Part shown: positions 23,536 to 39,805 of the stretch, in pieces
Numbering within the stretch: position 1 is the first letter of the stretch
Layout of the letters: each line of letters opens with the position of its first letter
Origin: Nitrospirota bacterium
GTDB taxonomy: Bacteria; JACPQY01
NCBI GenBank assembly: GCA_016180645.1
Contig: JACPAV010000012.1
Coordinates: 62,001-102,030, forward strand
DNA length: 40,030 bases
Direction of reading: 5' to 3'
Position numbers and translations under genes: made by a program
Notes under the pieces: model-generated
Databases searched by the model: none
What the model saw: the letters and a program-made list of their open reading frames with translations, nothing else
What the model was told of the DNA's origin: nothing

Positions 23536-24984
23536 TCACGAGCCATCCGTCTCCCAACCATTCTGTCGCACGAGTTGTTTCACCCGCGCCGCGATCTCCT
23601 CGCGGATCCGGCGGACCTCCGCAAGGGGACGACCCTTCGGGTCCTGGATGGCCCAGTCTTCGACTTTCGCGCCGGGGATCAACGGGCATTCTTCCCCGCA
23701 ACCCATCGTAATAAGCCACGAAGCGCCTTTTGAAAGTTCCACGGTCAACCGCCGCGGTTGCATTCGGCTTGCGTCCATGCCGACCTCCTTCAGGACCTCG
23801 ACGACTTCCGGATGAACCCGCTCCGCCGGGCGAGTCCCAGCCGACAGGGCCCGCGCCTTTCCCGGATCCGCCAGCAAATTGAATATCGCCGAGGCCATCT
23901 GTGAGCGTCCCGCGTTGTGGACGCAGGCGAAGATCACCTTCGTTGCAAAGAACCTCCGCCGGAATGCCAGCGACACGTTCACCAATGCCATGAGAACGGG
24001 CACTTCGACCAGGGGACCGATCACGGCGGCAAAGGCGGCGCCGGAATCGATTCCAAAGACCGCGACCGCGACCGCGATGGCCAGCTCGAAGTTGTTGCTC
24101 GCCGCCGTGAATGAGAGCGTGGCCGTCTTCGGGTAGTCCACCCCGATCTTCCGGCCCATCCAGAAGGAGACCAGGAACATCGCGACGAAGTAGATCAGCA
24201 ACGGCGCCGCGATCCGCAGGACATCGAGCGGAAGTTTCACGATGAGTTCGCCCTTCAAGCTGAACATCACCAGGATCGTGAAGAGAAGCGCGACCAGCGT
24301 GATGGGGCTGACCCTGGGGATGAACCGTGTCTCGTACCAAGTCCTGCCCTTGGCCTTCACCAGGACGAAGCGCGTGAACATGCCGGCGAGGAACGGGATC
24401 CCGAGGTAGATGAAGACGCTCTCCGCAATTTGCCCCATCCCGATCTCGACGACGCTTCCGCTCAGGCCGAAGAGCGGCGGCAGGACGGTGATGAAGAGGT
24501 AGGCGTAAACCGAGTAGAAAAGCACCTGGAAAATGGAGTTGAAGGCGACAAGACCCGCAGCGTATTCGGTGTCGCCCTTCGCAAGGTCGTTCCATACGAT
24601 GACCATGGCGATGCAGCGGGCCAGGCCGATCATGATGAGGCCGACCATGTACTCGGGGTGGCCGCGCAGGAAGAGGATCGCCAGGAAGAACATCAGGATC
24701 GGCCCGACGATCCAGTTCTGCGCGAGCGAGAGCCCAAGGACCTTCCCATCGCGGAAAACATCGCCCAGCTCTTCGTACTTCACCTTGGCCAGCGGTGGGT
24801 ACATCATCAGGATCATTCCGATGGCGATGGGGATGTTCGTCGTGCCGCTCTGGAAGCGGTTGACGAACGCCTCGGCGCCGGGGATGGCGTAGCCCACGCC
24901 GACTCCCGCCGCCATGGCCAGAAAGATCCACAGGGTGAGGTAACGATCCAGGAAGGAAAGCCGGCGGAGTGAAGTCACGGTCAA
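23536..24984 (-). CDS. acr3: ACR3 arsenite efflux permease fused to an LMWP-type arsenate reductase (ArsC)
   Basis: [47 protein letters not shown], followed directly by [25 protein letters not shown]. Start taken as TTG 24984 after GAGAGGG (alternative ATG 25014). Confidence 0.93.
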
Positions 24985-25004
24985 AGTTCCCTCTCGACCT
25001 GATG

Positions 25005-25364
25005 TCACCGACATGCGGCCGGTCCCATCGTCTTCCGCAGACGCAGCAGTTTCCTCACGAGGCGATCGTCGATGCGCGGCGACCGGGTCAAGGCCTGGAG
25101 AAGACGTCCGCGTTCGGGCTCGTCTTGAGGACGCAAACGATAACGCATCCAAGTCCCCTCCCGGCGGACCTCCACCAGCCCGGCGCCGCGGAGCACGGCG
25201 AGGTGGCGCGACACGTTGGGTTGGGAAGTCTCCAGGGCTGCCTGGAGATGGCAAACGCAAAGTTCGCCGTGGGAGAGGAGCGCTACGATCTGGAGTCGTG
25301 TTTCATCTCCGAGAGCCCTGAAGAGCTCCGCGAGCGATCGGGACCTTTGCTCGATGCGGATCAC
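25005..25364 (-). CDS. arsR: ArsR/SmtB repressor, As(III)-sensing type
   Basis: [30 protein letters not shown]. Confidence 0.92.
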
Positions 25365-25372
25365 TATATGTG

Positions 25373-25402
25373 TATATTCGCATTTAGGAATATAAGTGTC
25401 AA
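25373..25402 (-). promoter_or_regulatory. Sigma70 promoter of the ars operon with an overlapping inverted-repeat operator
   Basis: TTGACA (25402-25397)-17 nt-GAATAT on the minus strand; IR TATATTC-N8-GAATATA (25373-25394); the GTG start lies about 10 nt downstream. Confidence 0.7.
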
Positions 25403-25664: not shown

Positions 25665-27569
25665 CTATTCCGTGTCCTCGTCCTCTTCCGGCAGGAAGCC
25701 CTTGGAGAAGTCGCCGGGTTCGTGGCATTCGCGGCAGGCCTCGTGAGAGATGGTGACCGGGCCGCGCGATCCGACGGTGTGGCACACGGTGCACATTTTC
25801 TCCTTCGGATAGTCTTCCTTGAGTTCCTCGAAGTGATCGCCGTGCACAAACATTTCTGAGGAGAACTTCACTTCCACTTCCACGCCCTCCATGTTCTTAT
25901 GGCAGGAGAGGCACGATCGGCCCGCGGCGCGGGTTTCCTCATGGTGGCAGGTGTGGCAACTGTCGGCCGGGACCTTCGCCTTCGGCGGATGGTCGCCGGG
26001 ATGGCACAAGGTACAGGCCGTTGCTTCTTTGACGTGGACGTCGTGCCGCATCTTCTTACCGGCCGCTTCGACGAATTCCGCCCCTTCAAGTCCGCCATGG
26101 CAGACGACGGTGCAGTTCTCCTGGTCGAACGACCGGGGGAGGGCGACCGGGAACGTGAAGCCGGCCAGTGAGGCCACCATTTTCAGATCCTCAGCGCCCT
26201 TCTTGAGAAGATCCACCGAGTAGAACGGGTTGTGGATGGGCTTGGCCATCCGGACGAGTCGGGCGTTGGATTCGGCGCGCTTGATCAGGTTGTGGATCTT
26301 CCGCCCCTTCGGTCCATTCAATTTCGCCGTTTTCTGTCGAGATTTTTCCACCCCAATCAGAACCGTCGAAATCATGTTCTCCACCACCGGAGTCATGTGC
26401 CGGTCGAACCGCTTGAACTCATTTTCGTGGCACGAGGCGCAGGAGAGTGTGCCGGCCACCTTGGTCTGGCCCTCCCAGACCGCCTCGGATCGGGAGTGCT
26501 TCGGGATGACGTGGCACCCGGCGCAACTGATGCCCACGATGGCCATCGGATCCGGGCGGGCTTTCACGCCTTCACCGCCGATGCCGAGATACAAGTCCCG
26601 CGGCGGGTTGTGCATGTACTCATGGCAGCTCTGGCACTGCTGGTTCTGCGTTTCCGCCAAGTGCTTGTTGAACTCGTGCTTGATGGGATCGTGGCAACTC
26701 TCGCACTCGATCTTGTGCACGGACGTATGTTCGATGTGCATCTCGTCCACATTCCCGGCTTTCTCCAGTTTCTCCGGCTCGTTGTGGCAGTTGAAACAGC
26801 GGCGGCTGTCCGTCCGTCCGTCGCCGCTCACGACATCCGCGTGGCACCGGGTGCACTCGATATTCCGTTTCACGAAATCCTTGTGCTCGGCTTTGAAGCC
26901 CGCCGCTTCGATGGTCTTGTCGGGCGGACCGTGGCAGACGCCGCACTTCCCCAGTTTGGAGTCCTGGGCGATCTTTTGCTTTTCATGCAGGTGGCAGAGA
27001 AAGCAGGTGCCCTCGGTCACCTGGACGTGCGACCCGATCACCATCTGCGAGTGGCAACTGGTGCAGCGGAGCTTCATCCCCCGGCGCATCTCCGTGAGGT
27101 GCGGCTTGTGGTCGAAATGGATCTCTCGATCTTTGATCTTCCAGGTGACTTTGCTCTTCAGGAGCCGTGTCTCATGGCAGCCGCTGCGAAGGCACGAGGC
27201 ATCGCTGATCTCGGCGAACGGCTTGCTCGTGTAGGTGTGGGTGACGTAGGAGACGAGCTGTTTGAGCGCCTTCCACTTTCCGCGCATCTCATTCAGCGCA
27301 CCCGGTTCGAAGTGGCATTCGACGCAGTAGATGTCCTTGTGGCTGGAGTGTTTCCACGATTCGACGTAGGGCTCCATGAAATGGCAGGAATTGCAGAAAG
27401 TGGGGGTCACCGAGAACTTGTAGCCCGCGACCAGCGCGGCAAAAAGCGCGATGAAGATGAGTCCGGCCAGGCTTCCGACCCGGATCGCAATTCCCACCGG
27501 GTCCTTCCGGCTGAATCCCGTCAGCCAGCCGATATAGCGACGTAATCTGCTCTTCCACGCTTCAACCAT
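25665..27569 (-). CDS. Membrane-anchored multiheme cytochrome c with a NapC/NirT-like N-terminus
   Basis: N-terminal TM helix, TPTFCNSCHFM..W..SSH..CVECH; 16 CxxCH plus CLRSGCH and CTVVCH. Confidence 0.92.
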   Translation of the reverse strand: MVEAWKSRLRRYIGWLTGFSRKDPVGIAIRVGSLAGLIFIALFAALVAGYKFSVTPTFCNSCHFMEPYVESWKHSSHKDIYCVECHFEPGALNEMRGKWKALKQLVSYVTHTYTSKPFAEISDASCLRSGCHETRLLKSKVTWKIKDREIHFDHKPHLTEMRRGMKLRCTSCHSQMVIGSHVQVTEGTCFLCHLHEKQKIAQDSKLGKCGVCHGPPDKTIEAAGFKAEHKDFVKRNIECTRCHADVVSGDGRTDSRRCFNCHNEPEKLEKAGNVDEMHIEHTSVHKIECESCHDPIKHEFNKHLAETQNQQCQSCHEYMHNPPRDLYLGIGGEGVKARPDPMAIVGISCAGCHVIPKHSRSEAVWEGQTKVAGTLSCASCHENEFKRFDRHMTPVVENMISTVLIGVEKSRQKTAKLNGPKGRKIHNLIKRAESNARLVRMAKPIHNPFYSVDLLKKGAEDLKMVASLAGFTFPVALPRSFDQENCTVVCHGGLEGAEFVEAAGKKMRHDVHVKEATACTLCHPGDHPPKAKVPADSCHTCHHEETRAAGRSCLSCHKNMEGVEVEVKFSSEMFVHGDHFEELKEDYPKEKMCTVCHTVGSRGPVTISHEACRECHEPGDFSKGFLPEEDEDTE

Positions 27570-27587: not shown

Positions 27588-29705
27588 TCAGAAAAACAAT
27601 CCTATGGCAATCCCTGCCATGATCGCCGCGCCGAGGGTGAGGGCGATGAGACCGATGACGCGCGCCCTGCGGATTTCGTCAGGCGTCGGCGGCGCCACCA
27701 ACACATCGCCAGGAATCCCCCCTTCCGTCAGCCGGGCGTACTCCACCGGTCGCTCCGCCTTCAGCCGTTCCAAGGAAATCTTTCCGGTGAAGATCGTGTC
27801 ATCCATCGGGAAAACGTCCGGCCTGAGATGGGCAACAAAATAGTGGAAGAGAACCACGTAAGACACGGCCAGGAACGCTTCATACGTGTGGACCACTTGG
27901 GCCGCGTTGATGACCCATCCCGGCATGAACCGCGTGGCCACTTCCGGAAACCAAAGGACAAGCCCGGAGAGTGTGATGACCGGCACGCCCCAGAGTTCCG
28001 CGAGGTATTCGATCTTCTCCCAGTAGGCCCACCGGTCCAGCGCCGGGGCCGGGCCGCGGTAAACGAACCACTTGAGATTCGCCCGGAAGTCCTCCAGGTC
28101 TTTGAGTCTTGGAACCATGGATTGCCATCCCCACAGAATGCCCCAGTCCTTCCTCCGGAAGAGGCGGTTGGCCAGATAGACGAAGTGAACAAGGGTGTAG
28201 ACGACCGAAATTACGGCTGAGGCGCGGTGGATCCATCGCATCGTCTCGATGCCTCCGAGCACCAGCGTGACGAACTGCGCCCACGCCGTCCCGCTGAACT
28301 TGATGGAGAAGCCCGTTAGGGCCAGCGTGAGGAAGCTGACGATCATCGCGCCATGGACCCAGCGATGCACGCGGTTGAATCGGACGACGTAGTGCGTGGC
28401 CGGCCTCGATTGATCGGCGTCGAATTCCCCTCTCCAATGTCCAATCCATGCTCGTTGCGCCCACAGGAGGTAATGGATTGCGAAAAATCCCAGCGTCCCC
28501 GAAACGAGAACGACGAAGAAGAGCCATACCCAGTGGACATAGCGGTTCGCCTCGGGACTGGAGGGGACGGAGTGGGGGTCGTAAGTGATATAGGAGGCCG
28601 TCACCTTCTCGTGGCATTCACCGCAGGTCTTCTGAAGATTCGCCGGGTGGATGGAGGATCGCGGATCGTCGGCCGGGAGATTGTGATGGGGGGTGTGGCA
28701 ATCCGAACATTTCGCGGTGGCGACGTAGCCGAGCGAATACATCTGGCCGTGGACGTTGTCCTTGAACGTCGGGGCCTCGTCCTCGTGGCACTCTCCGCAT
28801 TCCTTGGCGATGCCGAGCTGAAACTTCCGGCTCGCCGGTTCCTGGATTCCGTGGGCGGTGTGGCAGGTAATGCAGACGGGTCCCGAATCGTCGTGGTCCG
28901 CCCACAGTTCCCCGTGCGCGCTCTCCTTGAAGGTCGTCAGGATTTTCTCGTGGCATCCGGCGCAGGTCACCGGCACGTTCCAGGGATGGACTTTCGAGTG
29001 TTCGTCGTCTTTGCTGAAAATCGCATGGTTTCCGTGGCAATCCGTGCATACGGCGGAAACGAGGAGGCCGCTGACTTCCACGCCCCGGCCGTGAACGCTT
29101 TTCCGATAGCGCTGGATGAAGGAGGGCTTGGGCAGTTCGTGTCCCTCGGTGAGGGCTTCGTCTTCGTGACATTTGGCGCAGGTGTCGGCCAGATTGAAGC
29201 GATTGATTTTGGAATCGTGATCCTTGTCCGGGTAGATGTCGTGCTCGCCGTGACAACTCGAACACGTCGGCGCCTCTTCGTCGCCGTCCCGCGCCGCCTC
29301 CGCGTGGACGCTTTGGTCATAGTCCTTCGCCGATTTCTTGTGGCAGGCGACGCAGTTGACCGCATCGAGCGTGACGTCCTCTTCGTCGTGATCGTCCTTT
29401 ACCTCGGCATCCCCATGGCACTTGATGCAGGTCTGTTTCTTGTGGACGGAGCGTTTGAGGACCGCGGTGTCGACGGTGGGCTCCTCTTCCGCGTGGCATT
29501 CGAGGCAGTCTCGGTCGGATGACCAAGCGGCGCCCGCCAATAATAAGAGCGGGACGAGCGTCAAGAGGACGCGCTGGATCCCCTTCGTCGTAGCGCCCGG
29601 TTTTACACCGGGCGTTGAACCGTCCGGCATGAAGCCGGACGCTACGAGGAAACCGGTGGCACGAACAACCATAGGAAACATCGGGCGGGATAGGGCGCGA
29701 CGCAC
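27588..29705 (-). CDS. Multiheme cytochrome c fused to a cytochrome b membrane domain (CbcL-like)
   Basis: 11 CxxCH, then RFNRVHRWVH..LALTG, WIHR, YWEKIEY, VHTYEAFLA..HYFVAH; start codon uncertain. Confidence 0.9.
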   Translation of the reverse strand: MRRALSRPMFPMVVRATGFLVASGFMPDGSTPGVKPGATTKGIQRVLLTLVPLLLLAGAAWSSDRDCLECHAEEEPTVDTAVLKRSVHKKQTCIKCHGDAEVKDDHDEEDVTLDAVNCVACHKKSAKDYDQSVHAEAARDGDEEAPTCSSCHGEHDIYPDKDHDSKINRFNLADTCAKCHEDEALTEGHELPKPSFIQRYRKSVHGRGVEVSGLLVSAVCTDCHGNHAIFSKDDEHSKVHPWNVPVTCAGCHEKILTTFKESAHGELWADHDDSGPVCITCHTAHGIQEPASRKFQLGIAKECGECHEDEAPTFKDNVHGQMYSLGYVATAKCSDCHTPHHNLPADDPRSSIHPANLQKTCGECHEKVTASYITYDPHSVPSSPEANRYVHWVWLFFVVLVSGTLGFFAIHYLLWAQRAWIGHWRGEFDADQSRPATHYVVRFNRVHRWVHGAMIVSFLTLALTGFSIKFSGTAWAQFVTLVLGGIETMRWIHRASAVISVVYTLVHFVYLANRLFRRKDWGILWGWQSMVPRLKDLEDFRANLKWFVYRGPAPALDRWAYWEKIEYLAELWGVPVITLSGLVLWFPEVATRFMPGWVINAAQVVHTYEAFLAVSYVVLFHYFVAHLRPDVFPMDDTIFTGKISLERLKAERPVEYARLTEGGIPGDVLVAPPTPDEIRRARVIGLIALTLGAAIMAGIAIGLFF
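29590..29645. repeat. GTAG REP doublet inside the 5' part of the CbcL-like ORF
   Basis: GTAGCGCCCGGTTTTACACCGGGCG-ttgaac-CGTCCGGCATGAAGCCGGACGCTAC. Confidence 0.82.
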
Positions 29706-29715
29706 TCCAGCGGCG

Positions 29716-30966
29716 TCACTTCCTTCGCCACCGGCGGATCAGGCCCACCGCGAGGAGGGCGCTGACGACGAACAACCCTCCGACGGTCACACCGATCAAG
29801 AGAAAAACCACGGCCGGGCTTTCCGGTTTCTTGAGGATCACGCGTTCGGTGAACCGGACGGAACCCTCGACGAGCGCTCTTAGTTCCTCGAGTTGCACTT
29901 GAACGCGTGTGACATCCAGCGAATGGGTGGCTCGCAGGACCTTGAGCCTCGCCTCACGCACCCTTCCGGATTCGCCTTCGAGGAACCGAACGGCTTCCGG
30001 TTTGCCCCGGTGTTGTTCCAGTGCCTTGTCGAACCGCGCACCGAGGGCCTCGGCCTCATCGGCCGATGTCTGAAGATCTTTCGCCAGCCGGAGGACCTTT
30101 TCCTCGTCTTCGTCGTGGCACGATTGGCAATTGCCCTCCTGGTCGCCGTTCCCCGTAAAGAGCCCCGCGGGCGGGATGGTGTTCTTGTGGTTGCCGTGGC
30201 AGTCCGTGCATTCGGGCTCGTCGAATTGGATGAGCGCGGCGCGGTGTTCGCTTTCACGCAGGTATCGCGCGACCTCACGGTGGCAGCTCCCGCAGACCAT
30301 GGGGACTTGCGAAACCTCGGCCGGCCGCGCGCCGTGGGTGCCGTGGCAATCCACGCACACGGGAACATCATCGGCCTTCGGGGAGGCGCGCTTGCCGAAG
30401 AGGATCTCGCCGTGGATTCCCTCCTTGTACTCTTCGACCTGATCCGTGTGCCCTTTGTAGGGTTTCATCTTCTTCGCGTTGGAGTGGCATTCGCCGCACA
30501 TGTCGGGGACGTTCATCTTGAAAACACGGGACTTCGGATTGTCCTTCGAAACGATATCGTGGACTCCGTGACAGGAGGTGCAGATGGCCACGCGCGTATC
30601 CCCCTTGGCGAGGAGTTCTCCATGGCGGCTGGTGCGGTACTCGGAAAGGACGTGGGTGTCCACCCGATAGAACTTCATCCGGCGGATGTCCTCGTGGCAT
30701 TCGCCGCACATCCGCACGGCTTCCGCGCGGGTGAATTTGCCCTTGAAACCCTTGGATGCGGCGTGGCCGGCCTTTTCGTCCTTCGCCCGATGATCGCCCC
30801 CGTGGCATCCGCTGCAACTTACGTCCGAGTCGAAATGGATACCGGCCCGGTGTTCGATGTTGGCTTTCGGAGTGGCTGTGTCGTGGCAGGTGAGGCACTC
30901 ATCCGGCCCCCCGGGATCGGGCGACAGCAACAGCGAAAACAGGACTACACCGGTCCATGATGCCAT
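29716..30966 (-). CDS. Nonaheme cytochrome c with a C-terminal membrane anchor
   Basis: Signal peptide, 9 CxxCH, helical stalk, TM helix followed by RRWRRK; RBS GGAGG. Confidence 0.92.
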   Translation of the reverse strand: MASWTGVVLFSLLLSPDPGGPDECLTCHDTATPKANIEHRAGIHFDSDVSCSGCHGGDHRAKDEKAGHAASKGFKGKFTRAEAVRMCGECHEDIRRMKFYRVDTHVLSEYRTSRHGELLAKGDTRVAICTSCHGVHDIVSKDNPKSRVFKMNVPDMCGECHSNAKKMKPYKGHTDQVEEYKEGIHGEILFGKRASPKADDVPVCVDCHGTHGARPAEVSQVPMVCGSCHREVARYLRESEHRAALIQFDEPECTDCHGNHKNTIPPAGLFTGNGDQEGNCQSCHDEDEEKVLRLAKDLQTSADEAEALGARFDKALEQHRGKPEAVRFLEGESGRVREARLKVLRATHSLDVTRVQVQLEELRALVEGSVRFTERVILKKPESPAVVFLLIGVTVGGLFVVSALLAVGLIRRWRRK

Positions 30967-31139
30967 AAGCTATTCCTCCAGTTTGTGTCGACAGACGTGT
31001 CCGGGCAAGAATGGGCACTTCCAAATCACTGCTGGGCAAGGGTAGCTTTCATCCTCGATTTCCACACTGACTTTGGTCAACCCGAAACAGGACTTAGGAT
31101 CCGTTTGAAAACCCCATCATTGCCGGGGCGCATCTCTTG

Positions 31140-31262
31140 GTAGGCGCACCCCCATGCCGAGGACGGTATGGGGCCATGAGATGTCGCCGTGCCACGGATG
31201 GCACGGCATGTCACATGGCCTTTAGGGTGCGTTTTCGGACGCAGGCTAAAGCCTGCGGCTAC
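31140..31262. repeat. GTAG REP doublet; the left REP is interrupted by the 67-bp element
   Basis: GTAGGCGCACCC[insert+CC]TTTAGGGTGCG ... CGCAGGCTAAAGCCTGCGGCTAC. Confidence 0.82.
31152..31218 (+). mobile_element. 67-bp structured miniature insertion element, copy A
   Basis: CCATG...CATGG ends, flanked by CC on both sides; 53/67 identical to copy B without gaps; removing it restores a perfect REP hairpin. Confidence 0.75.
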
Positions 31263-31452
31263 CGGTCCAGTGCGTTTTCAAACGAGGCCTGGTGCGGATT
31301 CGAGGCAATCTCATAGCCCCGCTGGAAAGACGATCTTTTCCTTGATGGCCGTCATCACACGGGTTTTCAGGCTTTGGCATAGTGCTGCACAAATGCGTCA
31401 GCAGTGCCACTGCTCTGATTCGATATCGCACGCACATTCCATGCGTGAATAC

Positions 31453-31508
31453 GTAGGGGAGGGTGTCTACACCCTCCCAATCGGGAGCATCTGAAGATGC
31501 TCCCCCAC
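31453..31508. repeat. GTAG/GTGG REP doublet upstream of the molybdoenzyme RBS
   Basis: GTAGGGGAGGGTGTCTACACCCTCCC-aatc-GGGAGCATCTGAAGATGCTCCCCCAC. Confidence 0.85.
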
Positions 31509-31534: not shown

Positions 31535-34204
31535 ATGAAGCAACAGATAACCCGAAGAGATTTCATGGCGACAACCGCCGCCGGCTTGGGCAGTTTCCTC
31601 GTTCTGGAAACCCTTCAGAGTTGCGACGGTGGCGGGAAAAAGGAAGAAATCTGGAAGACACCCCCGGACCTTCACGCCGCCTACCCGATCGAGTTCACGG
31701 AGGAGACGAAGTACACGAGCTGCTGGATCGGCAAACAGGATTGCGGGATGACGGCGCGCGTTCTCACGCAAACGATCGGGGACCGGGAAGTCAAGAGGAT
31801 CGTCAAGTTCGAAGGAAATCCTGACAACCCACGAAACAACGGCACGCTCTGTCCGAAGGGTTTCGCGCAGCTTCAGGGTATCTACGACTACAACCGCGTG
31901 AAAACCCCCCTCAAGCGAACCAATGCCAAGGGAGAAGCCGGCGCGTTCGTCCAGATCAGTTGGGACGAGGCCCTGAACACCGTGGCGGACAAGCTGAAAG
32001 CCGCCAAGAGCGCCTCTTCCTATGTCTTGTGGCAGAAAGGGCGGAGCAAGTCGGAGCCTCTGTATGACGGCGCGTTCATCAATGCGATGAAGGAGGCGGG
32101 CTACAAGAATTACAAGATCGGCCACGGGGCCTACTGCTCGGATAGCGGCTATCGCGCGGCGGAGTATACGATCGGCTACCATGGCGTGTACCACCCCGAT
32201 TTCAAGAACACCAAGTACCTCCTCTCCTGGGGATGGAACCTCACGAGCGCCGGCGGGAACAAGTTCTGCTTCATCACGTGGCCGCAGGAATTCGTGAAAG
32301 CCCGGGCCAACGGAATGAAGGTGGTGGCGCTCGATCCGTTCCGCCGGGGAACCGGCCCGCACGCGGACGAGTGGATCCCCAACAAGCCGGGCACGGACCT
32401 CGCCTTCTTCCTCGGCCTCCAGCACTACCTCGTCACGAACGGCCACCTGGACAAGGACTATCTCAAGACCTACACCAACGCCCCGTACCTCGTGAAAGAC
32501 GATGGCACGGTGGCGAAGGTTACGACCACCGCCTCTGACGGCACCCAGACGTCGAAGGAATTGGTCTGGGACACGAAAACGAGCGCGGCCGTCGCCTACG
32601 ACACCGCGGGCATCGACCCAGTGCTCGACGGCTCCTACACGGTGGACGGCGCAACCGTCAAGCCCGCCCTTGAAAGGATGAAAGACCACCTGACGGGCAA
32701 GGGCTACACACCCGCATGGGCGGACTCCACCTGCGATATCCCTTCTGGGACCGTTGAGCGCGTGGCCAGGGAATTGGCGTCCAACGCGAACATCGGCGGG
32801 ACGACCACGATAGACGGCATCACCCTCCCCCTTCGCCCCTCCGCGATGATGGCCTACCATGTGACCCAGCAGGAACTTGGGATGCCCGCCGGCCGCGCGG
32901 CCATCATGGTGTTCATGCTCCTGGGCGCCGTGGGCGTGCCGGGGGGAACCCAAATAGACATCGGAGCGACGGCCCTGCATGAGAACTACAAGAAATTGGA
33001 CGAAGCCGGCATCAAGGACGGCCCCTACAACTGGGATCTCAGCGGCAGCAAGTTCTTCCCCATCAAGACCACGAATCCATCCTTCCTGGCAAACATCTGG
33101 CTTAACCCGTCCAAGTACGGTGTGAACGAGGCGACGCTCCCGAAGGTCGCGATCTTCCACATGAACAACGGCGCCGTGTCGTTCGCGGACAGCAAGACGA
33201 TTCGAGAGGCGTGGAAGAGGATCGAGTTCGTGGTGGACATCAACCCGTGGCTCTCCGATACGGCGAGTCTCTTTGCGGACGTCATCCTACCCGCGGCCAC
33301 CATCGAGAAATACGAGGGACCGGGCAGCGGCAAGGCGCTCTATGAGAAGGCCGATTCCCTCCGAATGCCCCCGATCCCGGCGCTGTGGGAGTCCCGCGGC
33401 GAGATGGAGATCTACATCGACATCGCCGACCGGGCCGGGTTCCTCACGGGCGACAAGGGCCTTGTCGCACAGCTCAACAAGGAGCTGTCGCTCTCGGGCA
33501 ACAAGATGGATGTGAGCTCCAAACCCACCGTGCGGGACATGTTCGATCGCTGGGCGAAGGACAAGCTCGGCAAGGCGGACGGCATCGCCTACCTTGAGCA
33601 GCACGGCAACACCGGGCGCAAGGCGATCTCGGCGAAAGACGCCTATCCCGCCGCCCAAAGCTATGCGGGAGCGAAGCACCGCCTGTACGGCGAGTCGCTC
33701 CTCAAGTACCAGACCACGATGAAGGGAAAAGGCGTGGAAGCGATCTACTACCAGGACTACACGGCGTTCCCCACGTGGAGGGCGCCGACGATGTATTCCT
33801 CGCCGGGCACGTATGATCTTCACTTGATCAGTTACAAGAAGATCGAGCACAAGCAGAGCCGGTCGAGCTTCGTGCCCTTGCTCGCCGAGCTCGCGCCCAA
33901 ACAGGGTCTGGTCATCAATTCCGCAACGGCGAAGGCGAAAGGCATTGCCGAGGGTGATGCCGTGACCGTGACCAGCCACAATGCCGTTACGGGCGAGACG
34001 CGGTCGATCAGGACCGCCGCCCGCCTCGTCGAGAGTATCCGCCCGGACACGGTGGCCCTGTCGCACCATTACGGGATAACGACGCACCCCAACGCGAAGG
34101 ACCAGGGGCCCACGCCAAACGAGCTCTTCTTCACGAGCGAGGGCTACGTCCAGTGCACGATGGATGCGTCCTTCCAGGTGAAGGTCGGCGTCTCCAAAGC
34201 GTAA
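31535..34204 (+). CDS. Tat-exported lipoprotein DMSO-reductase-family molybdopterin catalytic subunit, Arr/Arx-like
   Basis: RBS GAGGAGG; ITRRDFM twin-arginine, LQSC lipobox; CWIGKQDC..GTLCPKG; ISWDEAL; KGRSK; GHGAYCSD; KPGTDLA; SDTASLFADVILPAA; IRPDTV. Confidence 0.9.
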   Translation: MKQQITRRDFMATTAAGLGSFLVLETLQSCDGGGKKEEIWKTPPDLHAAYPIEFTEETKYTSCWIGKQDCGMTARVLTQTIGDREVKRIVKFEGNPDNPRNNGTLCPKGFAQLQGIYDYNRVKTPLKRTNAKGEAGAFVQISWDEALNTVADKLKAAKSASSYVLWQKGRSKSEPLYDGAFINAMKEAGYKNYKIGHGAYCSDSGYRAAEYTIGYHGVYHPDFKNTKYLLSWGWNLTSAGGNKFCFITWPQEFVKARANGMKVVALDPFRRGTGPHADEWIPNKPGTDLAFFLGLQHYLVTNGHLDKDYLKTYTNAPYLVKDDGTVAKVTTTASDGTQTSKELVWDTKTSAAVAYDTAGIDPVLDGSYTVDGATVKPALERMKDHLTGKGYTPAWADSTCDIPSGTVERVARELASNANIGGTTTIDGITLPLRPSAMMAYHVTQQELGMPAGRAAIMVFMLLGAVGVPGGTQIDIGATALHENYKKLDEAGIKDGPYNWDLSGSKFFPIKTTNPSFLANIWLNPSKYGVNEATLPKVAIFHMNNGAVSFADSKTIREAWKRIEFVVDINPWLSDTASLFADVILPAATIEKYEGPGSGKALYEKADSLRMPPIPALWESRGEMEIYIDIADRAGFLTGDKGLVAQLNKELSLSGNKMDVSSKPTVRDMFDRWAKDKLGKADGIAYLEQHGNTGRKAISAKDAYPAAQSYAGAKHRLYGESLLKYQTTMKGKGVEAIYYQDYTAFPTWRAPTMYSSPGTYDLHLISYKKIEHKQSRSSFVPLLAELAPKQGLVINSATAKAKGIAEGDAVTVTSHNAVTGETRSIRTAARLVESIRPDTVALSHHYGITTHPNAKDQGPTPNELFFTSEGYVQCTMDASFQVKVGVSKA

Positions 34205-34218
34205 GGAGGTAACGAACC

Positions 34219-35034
34219 ATGGCACGATACGGAATGGTCATCGATCTCTCAAAATGCATGGGCTGCCGCGCCTGTATGGAGGCGTGCAAGACGGAGAACG
34301 GAACGCCCCTCGGCCACTTCTTCATGTACACGTTCCGATGGGAAGAGGGAACGTATCCGAGTTCCACGATCCGTTTTCTGCCTCGCCCGTGCAACCATTG
34401 CGACAACCCGCCCTGCGTGAAGGCCTGCCCCTACGATGCGCGGATCAAGTGGAAGGGCGGGCTCGTTCTCACCGACGTGGACAATTGCCGCGGCGTGCGT
34501 TACTGCGAACAGGCCTGTCCCTATGGCGTGAACTATTTCAACGCCAAGAAGCCCGAGGAGAACTACGGGCTTGATTACGGCCACGCGGACCTTGCAAGCA
34601 CCACCGGTGGCGCCGTCCCGCCGTATTGGAAACCGGAACTGGAGAAGGCGTACTCCTGGGACGAGGATCCCAAGAAAAAAATAGAACGGCGCGTGGCAGG
34701 CGCGGGACACCGCGAGAACACCGTCGGGAAATGCACCTTCTGCGTCCACCGTCTGGAGAACGGCATCACGAAAACGGCCTGCCAACAGGCCTGCCCCGTC
34801 GGTGCGATCATCTTCGGCGATCTGGACGACGCCGGCAGCGACGTGGCCAAGGCCTTGGCCTCGCGCAAATCGGAAACGTTCCGCCTCAAGGACGTGGCCC
34901 AGACCGAGCCCAAGGTCTACTTCATCGGCAAAGCCCCGGCCGCCGCGGCTCACCTCATTGAGCAGATTCCCATTCCGGCCGACGTTCAGAAACTGGGCAA
35001 GACCGAATACGAAGGGGGTACGATCCCCTGGTAA
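34219..35034 (+). CDS. Four-cluster Fe-S subunit (DmsB/ArrB-like)
   Basis: RBS AAGGAGG; MARYGMVIDLSKCMGCRACMEAC, CNHCDNPPCVKAC, CRGVRYCEQAC, KCTFC..ACQQAC. Confidence 0.93.
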   Translation: MARYGMVIDLSKCMGCRACMEACKTENGTPLGHFFMYTFRWEEGTYPSSTIRFLPRPCNHCDNPPCVKACPYDARIKWKGGLVLTDVDNCRGVRYCEQACPYGVNYFNAKKPEENYGLDYGHADLASTTGGAVPPYWKPELEKAYSWDEDPKKKIERRVAGAGHRENTVGKCTFCVHRLENGITKTACQQACPVGAIIFGDLDDAGSDVAKALASRKSETFRLKDVAQTEPKVYFIGKAPAAAAHLIEQIPIPADVQKLGKTEYEGGTIPW

Positions 35035-35100
35035 CAAGCCCACCCCCACGGGGATCCTCCCCCACGAGGGGCCATTCCTTCGTAGAAAGCGAAGCATCCC

Positions 35101-35226
35101 GTAGGGGAGCAGCTTTAGCTGCTCCCCAGAAGGGAGGACCCCGTGCCACGGAGGGCACGGGGCCATGCAATGTCGCCGCGCCAGGGGTGGCGCGGCATGG
35201 AACATGGCCTGAAGGTTCCCCCCTAC
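35101..35226. repeat. GTAG REP doublet; the right REP is interrupted by the 67-bp element
   Basis: GTAGGGGAGCAGCTTTAGCTGCTCCCC..GGGAGGACC[insert+CC]TGAAGGTTCCCCCCTAC; 57 bp without the insert. Confidence 0.82.
35141..35207 (+). mobile_element. 67-bp structured miniature insertion element, copy B
   Basis: CCGTG...CATGG ends, flanked by CC on both sides; same length and fold as copy A. Confidence 0.75.
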
Positions 35227-35933
35227 ACCGCCAAACCGCCTATCGTTTCTTCGCCGGCCTGCTTCTCTACCCCGAGCCCGACCGCATCGAGCACCTGAAA
35301 GCCGCCGCCCGGTGGCTGGCGGAGGGTGACGCCGTAAATCGTGAACCCGTGAACCAGAGCCGAGGAATCGGCAAACGGACGGACGGGATCACGGGATCAC
35401 GGGATCACGGGATCACGCAAGCCGTCCTCTCCCTCAACGGCGACCTCCAGGACGGAGGAAGTGCCGCGGGAGGGCGGGAGCCCGGAGCAGCCAATCTCGC
35501 CGACCTGCAATCCGACTACGTCCGCTTCTTCCGCTCCAGCCGCCATGACTTCTGCTACCCGTACGAGGGAGCCTACGTGGATCCGGAGATGAGCGCGGCT
35601 CTCTCGTTCCGGCTGGAGTCCGAATACGCCCAAGTCGGCGTCCAACTCTCCGTCAAGGATTTCCCCGACCACGCGGCCACGGAACTTGAGTTCATGTCCT
35701 ATCTCTGCGGACTTGAAGCGCGGGCGGCGATGGAAGGGTACGGAGATGCCGTGGCCGGCTGGCGCCGCCGGGAGCAGATTTTCCTGCGTGACCACCTGGG
35801 CAGATGGTTCCCCCAGTTCGCCCGTCGAGTGGGCGAAACGTCCAGGGGATTCTACCGCGGCGTCTGCGCCGGGGCGGCCGACTTCATTGCCTCCGACAAG
35901 ACCTGCCTGGAAAGGCTGACCCCCGTCATGTAA
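35187..35933 (+). CDS. TorD/DmsD-family molybdoenzyme chaperone
   Basis: YRFFAGLLLYP, DYVRFF, PYEGAY, PDHAATELEFMSYL, FLRDHLGRW. Start uncertain: the frame is open back to CTG 35028. Confidence 0.88.
   Translation: MARHGTWPEGSPLHRQTAYRFFAGLLLYPEPDRIEHLKAAARWLAEGDAVNREPVNQSRGIGKRTDGITGSRDHGITQAVLSLNGDLQDGGSAAGGREPGAANLADLQSDYVRFFRSSRHDFCYPYEGAYVDPEMSAALSFRLESEYAQVGVQLSVKDFPDHAATELEFMSYLCGLEARAAMEGYGDAVAGWRRREQIFLRDHLGRWFPQFARRVGETSRGFYRGVCAGAADFIASDKTCLERLTPVM
35383..35417. repeat. (ACGGGATC)x4 perfect tandem repeat inside the torD-like gene
   Basis: Units start at 35383, 35391, 35399 and 35407, followed by a partial ACG. Confidence 0.9.
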
Positions 35934-35949
35934 CCCCCACGGGGGAGCT

Positions 35950-36915
35950 GTGAACATCCGCTCCGCCGTGTCCAAAGGCGCCTGGGTGCTCGTCGGAGGC
36001 ATCGCCCTGACCGCGGGCTTTCTCGCCGTGGAAAGCTGGTGGTCCGCGCGGGAGGGGAGTAGACCCTTCGATATCCGCACGGGGTCGGACAACGTTCTCA
36101 AGGCGGATAGCCCTGTCCATCCGCTGAGAATCGCCATCGCGCCCGTCCTTTCGGTCAATCGGACAATCGAGGGATACCAGTCCATTGCGGACTACCTCTC
36201 ATACCGTCTGGCCGGCCCGGTCCGACTCGTCCAGCGGAAAACCTACGGCGAAGTCAACGAACTCCTTCGCCATGGGACGGTCCAGGCCGCCATCATCTGC
36301 ACCGGCGCCTACATCCAGGCTCAGGCGGACAGGGTCCCTCTCGACGCCATTGCCGTTCCGATCTACACGGACGGGCCGGTGTACTATTCCTTCATCATCG
36401 TGCGCGCGGAGGATGCCGCTCGCACGATGACCGATCTGAAGGGGCGCTCGTTTGCCTTCAGCGACCCGCTTTCTTTGAGCGGCCACTACTACGCCCTCTC
36501 CATGCTGTTGGATAGGGGAGTCAATCCCGGGGAATACTTTTCCGGGACGACGTTCACCTACAGTCACGACGGCAGCATCAAGGCCGTGGTGGATGGAATC
36601 GCGGACGGAGCCGCCGTGGACAGCCTCGTCTATGACTACGAAGTTCGCCACAACCCGGCCCTTGCTAGGTCGCTCCGGATCGTCCACCGTTCTCCGCCGT
36701 TCGGCTCGTCGCCCGTGGTGGTACCGAGGGCTCTCGAGCCGCCTCTCCGAGCCCATCTTCAGAAGGCATTTCTGAACATGGCCGATTCCAAGCTGGGAAG
36801 GGATACGCTCGATTCGCTCGCCATCCGGCGTTTCGAGGCCCCGCCGCCCGGACTATACGATTCCGCCGAGAACATCATTCGCAAAGTCGATCGCTACCTC
36901 CAGGGCCACCGGTAG
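35950..36915 (+). CDS. PhnD-fold periplasmic oxyanion-binding sensor (AioX/ArxX/ArrT-like)
   Basis: N-terminal TM; LVQRKTYGEVNELL, AAIICTGAY, YYSFIIV, FAFSDPLSLSG, TYSHDGSIKAV..DGAAVDSLVY; lies upstream of a kinase/regulator pair with no ABC genes in the window. Confidence 0.85.
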   Translation: MNIRSAVSKGAWVLVGGIALTAGFLAVESWWSAREGSRPFDIRTGSDNVLKADSPVHPLRIAIAPVLSVNRTIEGYQSIADYLSYRLAGPVRLVQRKTYGEVNELLRHGTVQAAIICTGAYIQAQADRVPLDAIAVPIYTDGPVYYSFIIVRAEDAARTMTDLKGRSFAFSDPLSLSGHYYALSMLLDRGVNPGEYFSGTTFTYSHDGSIKAVVDGIADGAAVDSLVYDYEVRHNPALARSLRIVHRSPPFGSSPVVVPRALEPPLRAHLQKAFLNMADSKLGRDTLDSLAIRRFEAPPPGLYDSAENIIRKVDRYLQGHR

Positions 36916-36920
36916 GTGCC

Positions 36921-38339
36921 ATGTTCGCCCGGCTCGTGCGCCGACCCCTCAAGCTTCGGACGAGAATTTCGGCATCGTTTGTCATCCTTCTAGCCATCTG
37001 CGTCGGGTTTCTGGCCATCTCACTCGGGTACCTCGTTTCAAAATCTTCCCTCGGTTTCTACCGTGAGAGGGGCGTCCACATCACGAGCGCCCTCGCCGCG
37101 CAGGCCGGCCCGTTGGTCTACTATGAAGATCTGACGGGGCTGGCCAATCTCCTCCAGTCGCAAATGAAGGCGATCCCGGACATCCGGTATATCGCCGTGC
37201 TGGAGCCGGATGGTCGCCCCATTTGGAGCACGTTCCCGTCGGGACTGCCGGCCGATCTCCTCGCCGTGCCGCACGAAACGAAGAGAAGTTCCGAAGTGTC
37301 GGCGCGGATCGTTCGCATGGCTGAAAAATTGCTCTATGACTATGAAGTTCGGAAGGGTCAGGTGGTCGTCCGGATCGGTATGACGCTCTCCCCTGTACAA
37401 GCCCTCAACCATGCGATCGTGATTTCCGCGGTGTGGATCGGATGCGGCTGCATCCTTGCGGCGGTGCTCCTGGCGCTGTACATCAGCCGCCCCTTGGAGG
37501 CCCTCAGCTCGGCCATTGAACGGGCCGTCGTCCTCGATCGTCGCACGGGAGGCGGAGAGGGGGTTAAAGATACTCTGGAAACCTCCGCCATAGCGGGACA
37601 CTTCCATGATCTCATGGCTCGATTGGAGGAACGAACCAAGCAGCTCGACGCCGCGAAGAAGCTCGCGTATCTCGGCGAGGTCTCGGCCACGATAGCCCAC
37701 GAGGTCAACAACCCCCTCGGTGTTCTGGCTATGAACTCCGAGTTTCTGGAAGATCGGGCGCGTTCGGGAGAATTGACCCCTGATGCGGCGCGGGAGGTCG
37801 CCCGATTGAGGATCGCGTCCAGGCGGGCCACGTTGGCCGTACAGAAATTTCTCCAGTTCGCGCGGTACACGACGGCGGGCGGCCTCCGGCCGCGACCGGC
37901 CAAACTTCCCACAATGGTCCAGGAGTGTGTGGAACTGCTGGGGGACAAGATCCATCTTGCCCGATGCGTCATCCGCACAGATATTCCGTCCAACCTCCCG
38001 CCGGTCATGTGCGACGGCCAGGGCCTCCAGCAGGTCCTGTTCAACTTCTTGACCAACGCCGTGGACGCGAGTCCGGAGGGGGGGGAGATCGTCGTTCGCG
38101 CGTCGCTTGACGGTGATGGCCTTCATCTGCAAGTCTCGGATCAAGGAAAGGGAATGAGTGAGGACGAATTGAATCGCGCGACGGAACCGTTTTTTACGAC
38201 CAAGGAGGAAGGTTTGGGCCTGGGTCTGGCCATCTCGCATTCCATCGTGCGTGCCCATGGGGGAACGTTGGAGTTGCGGAGCGAGGCCGGCAAGGGCACG
38301 ACTGCCACGGTGATTCTGCCCACCAAGGGGCTTGCCTGA
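36921..38339 (+). CDS. Membrane sensor histidine kinase (NtrB-type; AioS/ArrS position)
   Basis: 2 TM; AHEVNNPL, NFLTNAVDA, DQGKGM, EPFFTTK, GLGLGL. Confidence 0.92.
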   Translation: MFARLVRRPLKLRTRISASFVILLAICVGFLAISLGYLVSKSSLGFYRERGVHITSALAAQAGPLVYYEDLTGLANLLQSQMKAIPDIRYIAVLEPDGRPIWSTFPSGLPADLLAVPHETKRSSEVSARIVRMAEKLLYDYEVRKGQVVVRIGMTLSPVQALNHAIVISAVWIGCGCILAAVLLALYISRPLEALSSAIERAVVLDRRTGGGEGVKDTLETSAIAGHFHDLMARLEERTKQLDAAKKLAYLGEVSATIAHEVNNPLGVLAMNSEFLEDRARSGELTPDAAREVARLRIASRRATLAVQKFLQFARYTTAGGLRPRPAKLPTMVQECVELLGDKIHLARCVIRTDIPSNLPPVMCDGQGLQQVLFNFLTNAVDASPEGGEIVVRASLDGDGLHLQVSDQGKGMSEDELNRATEPFFTTKEEGLGLGLAISHSIVRAHGGTLELRSEAGKGTTATVILPTKGLA

Positions 38340-38364
38340 GTGCTGTTCCTGAGATCTCCGAAAC

Positions 38365-38421
38365 GTAGGGGAGCATCTTCAGATGCTCCCGCCTTGGGAG
38401 GGTCAAAAGACCCTCCCCTAC
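38365..38421. repeat. GTAG REP doublet (57 bp)
   Basis: GTAGGGGAGCATCTTCAGATGCTCCC-gcctt-GGGAGGGTCAAAAGACCCTCCCCTAC. Confidence 0.88.
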
Positions 38422-38467
38422 AAGAACATGCCGGGACGACACCGCCCTGGGAATCCCTCTAGGTCCG

Positions 38468-39805
38468 ATGGAAATCGATTCCCACGCGAAGATCCTCGTC
38501 GTCGAAGACGATCAAGCCATGCAGGAAACTTGCCGCCAGGCCCTCGGGAAGGTCGGTTACGAGACGGTCGGGGCGACGTCCCCCAGAGAGGCGGAGCCGA
38601 TTCTGCTCAAGGAAGACATCGATCTCGTGGTGACGGACCTGAAGATGCCTCATGGAGGCGGCCAAGAGGTTCTCCGCACCGCCCGGAAGATTTCACCGCA
38701 CCTTCCCGTCATCCTCATTACCGCCTATCCTTCCGTCCAATCCGCCGTGGACATGTTCAAGCGCGGCCTGGCGGACTACCTCACCAAGCCGTTTACCGTG
38801 GACCAACTCCGGCAATCGGTCCGCGCGGCGTTGCAAACCGGCCACGCGAGGGATCGATCGGAGTTGCTGCGGCAAGTCGGCCCGTCGGATTGGGAGGCGC
38901 CGGGGCTCGTGGGCGCCTCCGCGAGGGCGCGGGCTCTGCTCGCAGAAATCCGCCGCGTTGCAGCGGCGGAAGCGCACGTTCTTGTTTCAGGTGAAGCAGG
39001 CGCGGGACGAGAGGCTGTCGCGCGCGCCATCCACCGCTTCTCGGCCCGATCCGTGGGACCCTTTGTCGTGCTTCACTGCGCCTCGATCGAGGATTTTCCG
39101 GCGGCGGAGAGTCGGAAGGGCGGATGGGCGGGGGCCTTGGAGCAGGCATCGAGAGGCAGCCTCTTCCTGGATGAGGTGGGCGATCTACCTCGCGAGTTCC
39201 AGCCGAAACTGCTCGGCCTGGGTGTGGCGCGCGGAGGGAAGATCGCCGGGTCCACCGATGCGAGGGTTCTGGCCGCAACGTTCAAGGATCTACGCGAGGA
39301 AGTGCGGGCAGGCCGATTCAGGGAGGATGCCTACTATCATCTCGCCGGACTCGACATCCATGTCCCGCCGCTTCGCGAACGTCTTGAAGACGTGCCCGCC
39401 ATTGCCGTCGCGATTCTCGATCGAATGCCCGGCAGGGGGGAATCGCCCGAGATCGCCGGATTCGCGGAGGAGGCATTGGAACGGCTCTCGACGTATGCGT
39501 GGCCCGGCAACCTGCGGGAACTGGAGAACACGATCCGCAAGGCGGTGGCCCGAGCCGAAGGGCCGCTGATCAAGGCGGAGGATCTTGATCTGGGTGGATC
39601 GCTTTCCGCTGCCTCCAAGAAGGGCGCAACCGAGAAAGCCTCTCCCCGCGACCTGGCCGTCGGCGAATACGAAAGGAAATACATCACCTCCGCTCTTTCG
39701 GACCACGACGGCAACATCAGTCACACCGCGATCGCTCTCGGCGTCCATCGCACCACCCTCCAGCGGCTCATGAAGAAGCACGGCATCACCGGCTCCGGCC
39801 GGTAG
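38468..39805 (+). CDS. NtrC-family REC-AAA+-Fis HTH regulator with a degenerate AAA+ domain
   Basis: VVEDD, TDLKMP, KPF; GEAGAGRE, LFLDEVG, GRFREDAYY, WPGNLRELEN, ALGVHRTTL; no GAFTGA. Confidence 0.92.
   Translation: MEIDSHAKILVVEDDQAMQETCRQALGKVGYETVGATSPREAEPILLKEDIDLVVTDLKMPHGGGQEVLRTARKISPHLPVILITAYPSVQSAVDMFKRGLADYLTKPFTVDQLRQSVRAALQTGHARDRSELLRQVGPSDWEAPGLVGASARARALLAEIRRVAAAEAHVLVSGEAGAGREAVARAIHRFSARSVGPFVVLHCASIEDFPAAESRKGGWAGALEQASRGSLFLDEVGDLPREFQPKLLGLGVARGGKIAGSTDARVLAATFKDLREEVRAGRFREDAYYHLAGLDIHVPPLRERLEDVPAIAVAILDRMPGRGESPEIAGFAEEALERLSTYAWPGNLRELENTIRKAVARAEGPLIKAEDLDLGGSLSAASKKGATEKASPRDLAVGEYERKYITSALSDHDGNISHTAIALGVHRTTLQRLMKKHGITGSGR

Follow-up and report, generated by a model that had tools for sequence, protein, structure and literature searches.

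The final 40 kb of a 102-kb contig from a groundwater bacterium of the Nitrospirota (genome of 4.7 Mb, 97% complete) carry an island of twelve genes in which a molybdoenzyme operon with its own oxyanion sensor lies divergently from multihaem cytochrome genes and arsenic resistance genes; the whole stretch analysed, 40,030 nucleotides, is referred to here as the window. On the minus strand are arsR, acr3-arsC and three cytochrome genes (cyt1 to cyt3), and divergently from these, on the plus strand, are the genes that we call A, B, D, X, S and R. A first-pass annotation of this DNA had listed the same set, and every gene was found where it had been placed, with strong family matches, as follows.

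23536-25014, minus strand: acr3-arsC, a fusion of an ACR3 arsenite efflux permease (TIGR00832) and an arsenate reductase of the low-molecular-weight phosphatase (LMWP) type (PF01451)
25005-25364, minus strand: arsR, an ArsR/SmtB repressor (PF01022, 62.5 bits) that contains ELCVCHL
25665-27569, minus strand: cyt1, a membrane-anchored multihaem cytochrome of the NrfH/NapC type (PF03264, 27.8 bits, cut-off 24.1)
27588-29705, minus strand: cyt2, an 11-haem periplasmic domain (11 CXXCH) with a multi-helix cytochrome b-like C-terminal domain (helices at 392-701)
29716-30966, minus strand: cyt3, a 9-haem cytochrome (9 CXXCH; Paired_CXXCH_1, 56.7 bits) with a C-terminal membrane helix (386-404)
30967-31534, no strand: divergent intergenic region, 568 nt between the cytochrome operon and the A operon
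31535-34204, plus strand: A, a catalytic subunit binding molybdenum or tungsten bis-pyranopterin guanine dinucleotide (Mo/W-bisPGD; PF00384, 102 bits; PF01568, 42 bits)
34219-35034, plus strand: B, an electron-transfer subunit with four iron-sulfur (FeS) clusters and no signal peptide
35187-35933, plus strand: D, a TorD/NarJ-type maturation chaperone (PF02613, 73.7 bits)
35950-36915, plus strand: X, a periplasmic oxyanion-binding sensor of the AioX/ArrX/ArxX subfamily (PF12974, 186 bits)
36921-38339, plus strand: S, a membrane histidine kinase (two membrane helices; HisKA, HATPase_c)
38468-39805, plus strand: R, an NtrC-class sigma54-dependent response regulator (PF00072, 87.7 bits; PF00158, 105.9 bits; PF02954, a Fis helix-turn-helix, 35.1 bits)

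A gap of about 300 nt separates arsR and acr3-arsC from the three tightly packed cytochrome genes, and the six genes from A to R span 31535-39805 with short intergenic gaps. The contig ends 225 nt after R, so that the end of the window is also the end of the contig and genes farther downstream are therefore out of view. In the divergent intergenic region a ribosome-binding site, GAGGAGG, precedes A, and two opposed -24/-12-like elements lie 20 nt from each other, one on the plus strand (31375-31389), with a spacing one base under the consensus, and one on the minus strand (31409-31394). A scan of the window for the sigma54 promoter pattern gave 14 matches with 13.6 expected by chance, and these two elements are therefore no evidence on their own; matches to sigma70 promoters and terminators were likewise at chance level.

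The catalytic subunit A is a member of the Mo/W-bisPGD (dimethyl sulfoxide reductase) superfamily, with PF00384, PF01568 and PF04879 all over their cut-offs and Cys201 invariant. It carries the signature CWIGKQDC, WQKGRSK and GHGAYCSD, and its scores against the curated NCBIfam models were far under the cut-offs: 175 bits for PhsA (NF012032, cut-off 694), 116.5 bits for ArrA (NF041714, cut-off 1600) and 43.3 bits for TtrA (NF011567, cut-off 1750). The nearest solved chains by sequence were ArrA (103 bits), PsrA (92) and FdnG (90). A predicted structure (predicted local distance difference test score 85, predicted template modelling score 0.88) had its best fold match in ArrA (6cz7; TM score 0.66/0.72, 20% identity), with PcrA and PsrA a close second.

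Relatives of A were numerous, 2484 of 8000 scored protein-database candidates matching at E <= 0.001. The best 120 were 50-67% identical to A, and those of them that had names were labelled merely 'molybdopterin-dependent oxidoreductase'; a search of the ESM Atlas returned generic 'molybdopterin oxidoreductase' clusters only, the sole organism names in a listing of cluster members were those of two 'Deltaproteobacteria bacterium' MAG fragments, and our literature searches found no published characterisation of the family. Source names included Methylomirabilota, Dehalococcoidia and other Chloroflexi, Armatimonadota, Nitrospinota, Actinomycetota, Burkholderiales, Thaumarchaeota and Thermoplasmata, among others. 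In an alignment of 30 of the best 120 relatives the signature was invariant, reading TTCWIGKQ[DE]CG followed by LCPKG, then WQKGRSK, then GHGxxCSDxGYR with a cysteine as the Mo ligand. The motif for the first FeS cluster (FS0; residues 63-106 of A) thus has three cysteines, C-W-I-G-K-Q-[DE]-C and C-P-K-G, and the second cysteine of the usual CxxCxxxC is a glycine in 30/30 aligned members and in a sister protein from a Natronorubrum plasmid; CxxCxxxC is kept in all other clades of our tree. The FS0 cluster could accordingly be a 3Fe-4S cluster, or a 4Fe-4S cluster with a non-cysteine ligand. One family A gene elsewhere (L162/L142, G250:C2:6646-9167) is broken by two TGA codons and one TAG in its first ~280 codons and may be a pseudogene or an assembly error.

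To place the family we built a tree from 64 of 81 collected rows (IQ-TREE quick search, with Shimodaira-Hasegawa-like approximate likelihood ratio support); the 17 rows left out were seven of the family, locus L020, four of a '300-bit' group, four Ttr-model rows and one Phs-model row. The references were drawn by curated models from 400 sampled genomes and were not named sequences. The ArrA-model set comprised six genomes at E <= 1e-100 (five with RGRY and one with GRGWG, the latter Arx-like), none over the curated cut-off, the TtrA-model set 20 genomes, and the PhsA-model set eight, three of them over the cut-off. The A family formed a single clade of 17 rows (support 100), with the Natronorubrum protein, found by a plasmid search whose rows were mostly generically annotated, as its sister (support 100). 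Together with two other unnamed groups these made up a 28-row clade (support 100) that was sister to the Ttr-model clade (support 92, not starred), and the Arr/Arx and Psr/Phs rows formed separate starred clades (98, starred, for the Psr/Phs rows).

The first-pass annotation had called A Arr/Arx-like and had proposed a phylogeny as the check. With these proxy references A fell outside the Psr/Phs, Ttr-model and Arr/Arx clades and in a clade of its own, and the Arr/Arx label has to be given up: an approximately unbiased (AU) test rejected a tree in which the family and its sister were joined with the six ArrA-model matches (p 1.77e-5), the score against the ArrA model is 116 bits where 1600 are required, and KGRS stands in place of RGRY. 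The ArxA motif XGRGWG is absent as well, A having QKGRSK at this place, with the FGRGWG of locus L095 as a positive example. A true TtrA is excluded by the score and by the presence of Gly-Arg, and a PhsA or PsrA by the score and by the separate Psr/Phs clade. The Ttr-like arsenate reductases of the Anaeromyxobacter sp. PSR-1 type form a separate starred clade, and the peptides of published primers occur in the L101-L106 subclade of the Ttr-model clade; the primer-derived peptide KNNQFVY was found in 0/132 family proteins even with two substitutions allowed, a comparison made with the peptide and not with the PSR-1 sequence itself. The antimonite oxidase NaoABC, described as NapA-like with a Rieske subunit, was also rejected as the family of A. 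Sequence and tree position place A in a large Mo-bisPGD family without a name, distinct from both Arr/Arx and the PSR-1-type Ttr-like enzymes. The position of this family fits that of a lineage in PMC10100899 (2023), which may be the same one and to which the accessible part of that paper gives no function.

The electron-transfer subunit B had its best NCBIfam match in ArrB (184 bits, cut-off 450), with DsrO and TtrB also matching well, and its best PDB match in ArrB (6cz7_B, 159.9 bits over the full length; PsrB 140). It would presumably be exported together with A, whose N-terminus (MKQQITRRDF...LETLQSC) has a twin-arginine translocation (Tat) motif, a hydrophobic stretch and a lipobox-like cysteine, with an atypical Gln at position -2. 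A is probably lipidated at this cysteine. That the catalytic subunit is a Tat lipoprotein had been singled out in the first-pass annotation; both motifs are indeed present, but the feature is not special to this protein, being common to the 9-row subclade of the tree to which A belongs (support 100; lipobox-like cysteine in 9/9 rows) and to several paralogues in the genome. The genome encodes 13 Mo-bisPGD paralogues (on contigs C28, C3, C32, C30, C15, C58 and C5, six of them on C28), and since several of these also start with a Tat motif and a lipobox-like cysteine, a lipid anchor on molybdoenzymes seems to be customary in this organism.

The three cytochromes together have 36 canonical CXXCH and two variant haem motifs, in agreement with the earlier estimate of about 38 haems. 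For cyt1, 16 CXXCH, one CX3CH and one CX4CH were counted behind an N-terminal helix at residues 31-49; it scored 47.8 bits with the NrfH model TIGR03153, under its cut-off, and its best PDB match was NrfH (2j7a, E 5.6e-7). Its N-terminal helix and haem domain are those of the NapC/NirT/NrfH family, at four times the length of NrfH, making cyt1 a candidate quinol dehydrogenase. The C-terminal domain of cyt2 matched Ni_hydr_CYTB with 27.6 bits, just short of the cut-off of 30.1, and cyt2 is 39-40% identical to a split pair in the related locus L020, a 13-haem cytochrome and a separate b subunit, the latter of which passes with 31.5 bits. The architecture of cyt2 appears to be CbcL-type, CbcL consisting of a multihaem periplasmic domain joined to a dihaem cytochrome b membrane domain.

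The operon has no NrfD-type membrane subunit, as had been stated earlier; there is no NrfD gene within the window, and the four NrfD genes of the genome are on other contigs, beside other molybdoenzymes. We compared this with related loci gathered by an alignment-based metagenome scan (a single-protein query of genome contigs gave two loci), which yielded 72 unique loci, 30 with at least 4 kb upstream of A and 52 evaluable for NrfD. In the usual operon of the family, X, a kinase with sCache, HAMP and HisKA_3 domains and a regulator of the LuxR type come before A, B, NrfD and D, after which stand a polyferredoxin carrying an FlpD domain and then FmdE. NrfD follows B in 39/52 evaluable loci and is missing from 13/52, and an open reading frame (ORF) with at least two haem motifs was present in 8/13 loci without NrfD vs 0/39 with it (Fisher p 1.7e-6, a value that overstates the evidence because the loci are mutually related); a laxer count found cytochromes in 10/11 loci without NrfD. 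The closest relative of A with known context, L005 (61% identical), has no NrfD and an 18-haem cytochrome; L020, also without NrfD, has its 13-haem cytochrome, cytochrome b and a NapC/NirT-like cytochrome adjoining A-B-D. Small dihaem ORFs lie between B and D in several other such loci, and in one (G086) a trihaem c7-like gene follows D. Because NrfD and c-type cytochromes are mutually exclusive across the family, the cytochromes plausibly replace the anchor, and in the 9-row subclade of A a lipid tether, along with cytochromes, has plausibly taken over from the NrfD anchor. The window is the most elaborate form of this putative exchange. The earlier suggestion that cytochromes take the place of the anchor thus gains support from the family-wide pattern and from L020, which independently repeats the NapC-like and CbcL-like set next to A-B-D.

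Other differences from the usual operon were seen. In 34/47 unique loci with D (for example L014, L002 and L089), D is succeeded by a polyferredoxin of ~520 residues that has an FlpD/MvhD-like domain, and behind it there is often an FmdE-like zinc-finger protein; both are absent from the window operon. L020 has two family-related A genes in tandem (6348-8741 and 9854-12433), the first without a B of its own.

The arsenic connection begins with X. In a comparison with PDB chains X scored 180.6 bits with ArrX of Chrysiogenes, 112.8 with AioX and 63.1 with PtxB. The pocket of the AioX subfamily is described as Tyr88, Cys106, Tyr131, Ser161, Ser163, His192 and Asp210, PhnD lacking the cysteine and having Gly at 106 (PMC5908839, accessible part). 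X retains 7/7 of these residues (Y88, C106, Y131, S161, S163, H192, D210), and by these residues it is a member of the AioX/ArrX/ArxX subfamily. The same seven were kept in 26/26 further X proteins, including one beside an RGRY ArrA (L150) and two beside PSR-1-type enzymes. According to the same part of that source, AioX, ArxX and ArrX bound arsenite or arsenate only, out of ten oxyanions that included antimonite, selenate, tetrathionate and thiosulfate, with weak binding of phosphate by ArrX (PMC5908839). In a tree of 27 X proteins the window X sat on a long unresolved branch, and the tree assigned it neither to the ArrX-like nor to the family-type proteins.

Of the 30 unique loci whose sequence upstream of A reached 4 kb or more, 20 encode X together with a kinase and a regulator. 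The norm in the family is a LuxR/NarL-type regulator with a HisKA_3 kinase, similar to ArrR; S and R of the window depart from this norm in class, R being of the sigma54 type. A sigma54 regulator also accompanies X and a kinase at a canonical RGRY ArrA locus (L150) and at the locus of a PSR-1-type enzyme (L156), and the class of regulator therefore does not indicate the direction of the reaction. The window trio resembles the aioXSR, arxXSR and arrXSR trios, as far as the accessible text of PMC5908839 describes them, in having a binding protein with an AioX-type pocket, a membrane kinase and a regulator beside a molybdoenzyme, and differs in following D within the same operon. A second unnamed Mo-bisPGD clade (L164 in G002; L163 in G159) was also noted, with HGHGKY, a normal CxxCxxxC and no Gly-Arg.

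Further support comes from the neighbours and the active site of A. Genes of the ars type stand beside family members in four independent loci: the window; L007, where arsR, A-B-D and then an acr3 74% identical to that of the window follow one another; L010, with an acr3-arsC fusion directly upstream of A; and the plasmid of the Natronorubrum sister, which has in order an LMWP phosphatase, an MFS transporter, mobA, arsR, A-B-NrfD-TorD, an FeS protein, arsD and arsA. The survey of gene neighbourhoods that had been proposed thus linked homologues both to ars genes (four loci) and to cytochromes (8/13 loci without NrfD). Among proteins of solved structure, those closest to A, B and X are ArrA, ArrB and ArrX, respectively. 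In a MAFFT alignment the family and its haloarchaeal sister keep Gly-Arg (QKGRSK) where the Arr, Arx and Ttr-like arsenate reductases have it, and this pair is reported to be conserved throughout the arsenic enzymes and to be missing from true Ttr (PMC12949373, accessible part). The active-site motif of ArrA is (R/K)GRY at 163-166 (ANA-3 numbering) with H189, C193 and K198 (PMC13685797), and at these contact sites A has KGRS in the MAFFT alignment and keeps the His and the Mo-ligand Cys. The genome had no AioA match over the family cut-off and no ArrA-model match at E <= 1e-100. The metalloid link proposed at first pass, here specifically to arsenic, is thus upheld by an X closest to ArrX with its full pocket and by the recurrence of ars genes in L007, L010 and the Natronorubrum plasmid.

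We propose, with moderate confidence, that the region is one arsenic-responsive respiratory island in which AB reduces arsenate through cytochromes instead of NrfD. In this scheme A and B would form a periplasmic Mo/FeS oxidoreductase exported by the Tat system, with a lipid on the lipobox cysteine of A probably holding the enzyme at the outer side of the membrane. X would sense an arsenic oxyanion in the periplasm and signal through kinase S to the sigma54 activator R, which would turn the operon on. We infer a contact between B and the cytochromes, such that electrons would pass between the quinone pool and B through the membrane-bound cyt1 (NrfH/NapC-type) and cyt2 (CbcL-type) and the 9-haem cyt3. 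The likeliest reaction would be arsenate to arsenite, in the manner of Shewanella ArrAB with CymA, and ArsR, Acr3 and ArsC would handle the arsenic that enters the cell. A is probably a new kind of arsenic-respiring enzyme.

One of the closest known systems is ArrAB of Shewanella sp. ANA-3, also a periplasmic, Tat-exported heterodimer of A and B in which B has no signal peptide, with no NrfD, a NapC/NirT-type cytochrome (CymA there) as the quinone link, ars genes adjacent, and in ArrA and ArrB the closest solved structures to our A and B. It differs in that the window A is only ~20% identical to ArrA, has KGRS for RGRY and Gly for the second FS0 cysteine, lies outside the Arr/Arx clade and has a lipobox anchor. 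CymA is a single tetrahaem cytochrome, whereas the window has three large cytochromes with 36-38 haem motifs.

Several findings weigh against this proposal. Within the flanking DNA surveyed, acr3 was found in just 2/82 related loci. The equivalence of Gly-Arg depends on the alignment, a pairwise HMMER alignment to ArrA being shifted by two residues, and at other ArrA contacts A differs, with Ser for Tyr166, Gly for Ser190 and Tyr for Lys198. The second unnamed clade (G002), which has no Gly-Arg, also has an X-S-R trio with a sigma54 regulator next to A-B, and the sensor alone is therefore no proof of arsenic. The substrate is assigned by association. The dihaem cytochromes of relatives without NrfD would suit arsenite oxidation, as would the occurrence of the family in Methylomirabilota, Nitrospinota, Thaumarchaeota and Burkholderiales. 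For cyt2, the match to cytochrome b lies marginally under the Pfam cut-off. A search of the 97% complete genome for the type of quinone gave no match for MqnA and, for MenD and the Ubi hydroxylases, scores under the cut-offs. The contig end so close behind R counts on the same side.

The same wiring might run in reverse, A and B being an anaerobic or microaerobic arsenite oxidase that passes electrons from As(III) through B and the cytochromes to the quinone pool or to a terminal reductase or oxidase; we consider this unlikely for the window. R is of the sigma54 class, as are AioR and ArxR, the ArrR of Chrysiogenes being of the FixJ/CitB type in the accessible part of PMC5908839, but the RGRY ArrA locus L150 combines X and S with a sigma54 regulator too. 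The motif of A is unlike the RGRY of ArrA, but the GRGWG of ArxA is absent as well. Small dihaem cytochromes are the usual acceptors of periplasmic oxidases, and such a cytochrome lies between B and D in relatives without NrfD; the source names of the family also include aerobic or nitrate-respiring lineages. Cytochromes of the NrfH/NapC and CbcL types, on the other hand, oxidise quinol and feed periplasmic or extracellular acceptors, and X is nearer to the arsenate-binding ArrX than to the arsenite-binding AioX, ArxX lying outside that comparison. Arsenate reduction is slightly favoured because of these cytochrome types and the affinity of X to ArrX, and arsenite oxidation may be the reaction of other family members. 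We agree with the first-pass annotation that direction cannot be read from sequence.

A different substrate, either another oxyanion or a sulfur compound, is similarly improbable in our judgement; the candidates would be tetrathionate, thiosulfate, polysulfide, selenate or selenite, and antimonate, and the ars genes would then be present by chance or for cross-protection. The top NCBIfam match of A is PhsA and B matches DsrO and TtrB well, but all of these matches are far under their cut-offs. The wider clade is sister to the Ttr-model clade, but the neighbouring Ttr-like enzymes of the PSR-1 type are reported, in the accessible part of PMC12949373, to be arsenate reductases that do not reduce tetrathionate. 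Ars genes are present at a minority of related loci and another clade linked to X has no Gly-Arg, but such genes are found next to four independent members, including the haloarchaeal sister, and the window X keeps the pocket that is arsenic-specific in AioX, ArxX and ArrX as far as PMC5908839 was accessible. ArrAB and AioAB reportedly act on antimony too (PMC11521347, accessible part).

That the three cytochromes form a module of their own, serving for instance extracellular electron transfer, and adjoin by chance an AB with an unseen partner is very doubtful. In favour of this reading, the genome is rich in cytochromes (two more genes lie at 3598-5375), the promoter and regulator-site scans do not link the two operons, no cytochrome gene lies within 10 kb to the left or right in L007, which belongs to the same subclade, and the contig end hides what comes after R; against it stand the exclusivity of NrfD and cytochromes (0/39 vs 8/13), the recurrence of the NapC-like and CbcL-like pairing in L020, and the position of the cytochrome operon, divergent from A over 568 nt and with arsR and acr3-arsC next on the same strand.

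Among known systems, the Ttr-like arsenate reductases (the Anaeromyxobacter sp. PSR-1 type, the Melioribacter 'TtrA' with ArrTSR, and the Pyrobaculum enzyme) also invite comparison. They share Gly-Arg and their clade neighbours the window family in our tree, and L156 is a comparable arsenic island composed of X, a kinase, a sigma54 regulator, B, NrfD, A, acr3, ArsP, arsR and a 13-haem cytochrome, a layout with which the description of Melioribacter agrees (PMC5492636). They differ in forming a separate clade, in their length of ~1050-1090 residues, in a normal CxxCxxxC and in the usual order B-NrfD-A.

The acr3-arsC fusion of the window scored 458.6 bits with TIGR00832 (cut-off 282.8) and 60.8 bits with the LMWPc domain PF01451 over residues 442-563; its ORF is listed as 23536-25260, but translation probably begins at Met83 (25014), which makes the gene overlap with the end of arsR. 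An acr3 beside a PSR-1-type Ttr-like enzyme (L158 in G055, 3225-5136) is 83% identical to that of the window, an identity far above that between the neighbouring molybdoenzymes, and ars cassettes may thus have been exchanged. The DNA upstream of the island holds cytochrome genes, one monohaem and one multihaem (3598-5375), and genes for a 1968-residue protein with a Big_1 domain, a PAS-GGDEF-EAL protein and a PhoB-like regulator (3598-5375, 12434-18340 and 18285-22872 being the stretches listed); an upstream response regulator had as its top match a cyclic di-GMP phosphodiesterase model, under the cut-off. There is only one other species representative of the same family rank, the remaining relatives offered being related at the level of the domain only, and the lineage is therefore sparsely sampled.

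Taken at the level of the family, these data lead us to suggest, with slightly less than even confidence, that the CWIGKQ[DE]C/WQKGRSK proteins are a further, globally spread lineage of enzymes that oxidise or reduce arsenic oxyanions, separate from Aio, Arr/Arx and the Ttr-like enzymes, with an unusual three-cysteine first FeS cluster and interchangeable NrfD or c-type cytochrome modules, and in part maybe arsenite oxidases. The release of arsenic into groundwater is followed through the marker genes arrA, arxA and aioA, which Ttr-like enzymes are already said to escape (PMC11462812, accessible part). Members of the family occur in uncultured Chloroflexi, Methylomirabilota, Armatimonadota and Nitrospinota and in several groups of archaea, and if the suggestion is true, surveys of these three genes would miss a sizeable part of environmental arsenic redox cycling. 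Should the family turn over arsenic, it would be a widespread group in uncultured phyla of soil, sediment and groundwater, with thousands of database relatives, and its signature would be a ready means of detecting it. The three-cysteine FeS motif poses a further question for enzymologists, and the family as a whole offers a natural experiment in which one catalytic module is plugged into either a quinone-site anchor or cytochrome chains. Judged by its genes, the island of this groundwater bacterium is coherent as an arsenic-sensing respiratory module.

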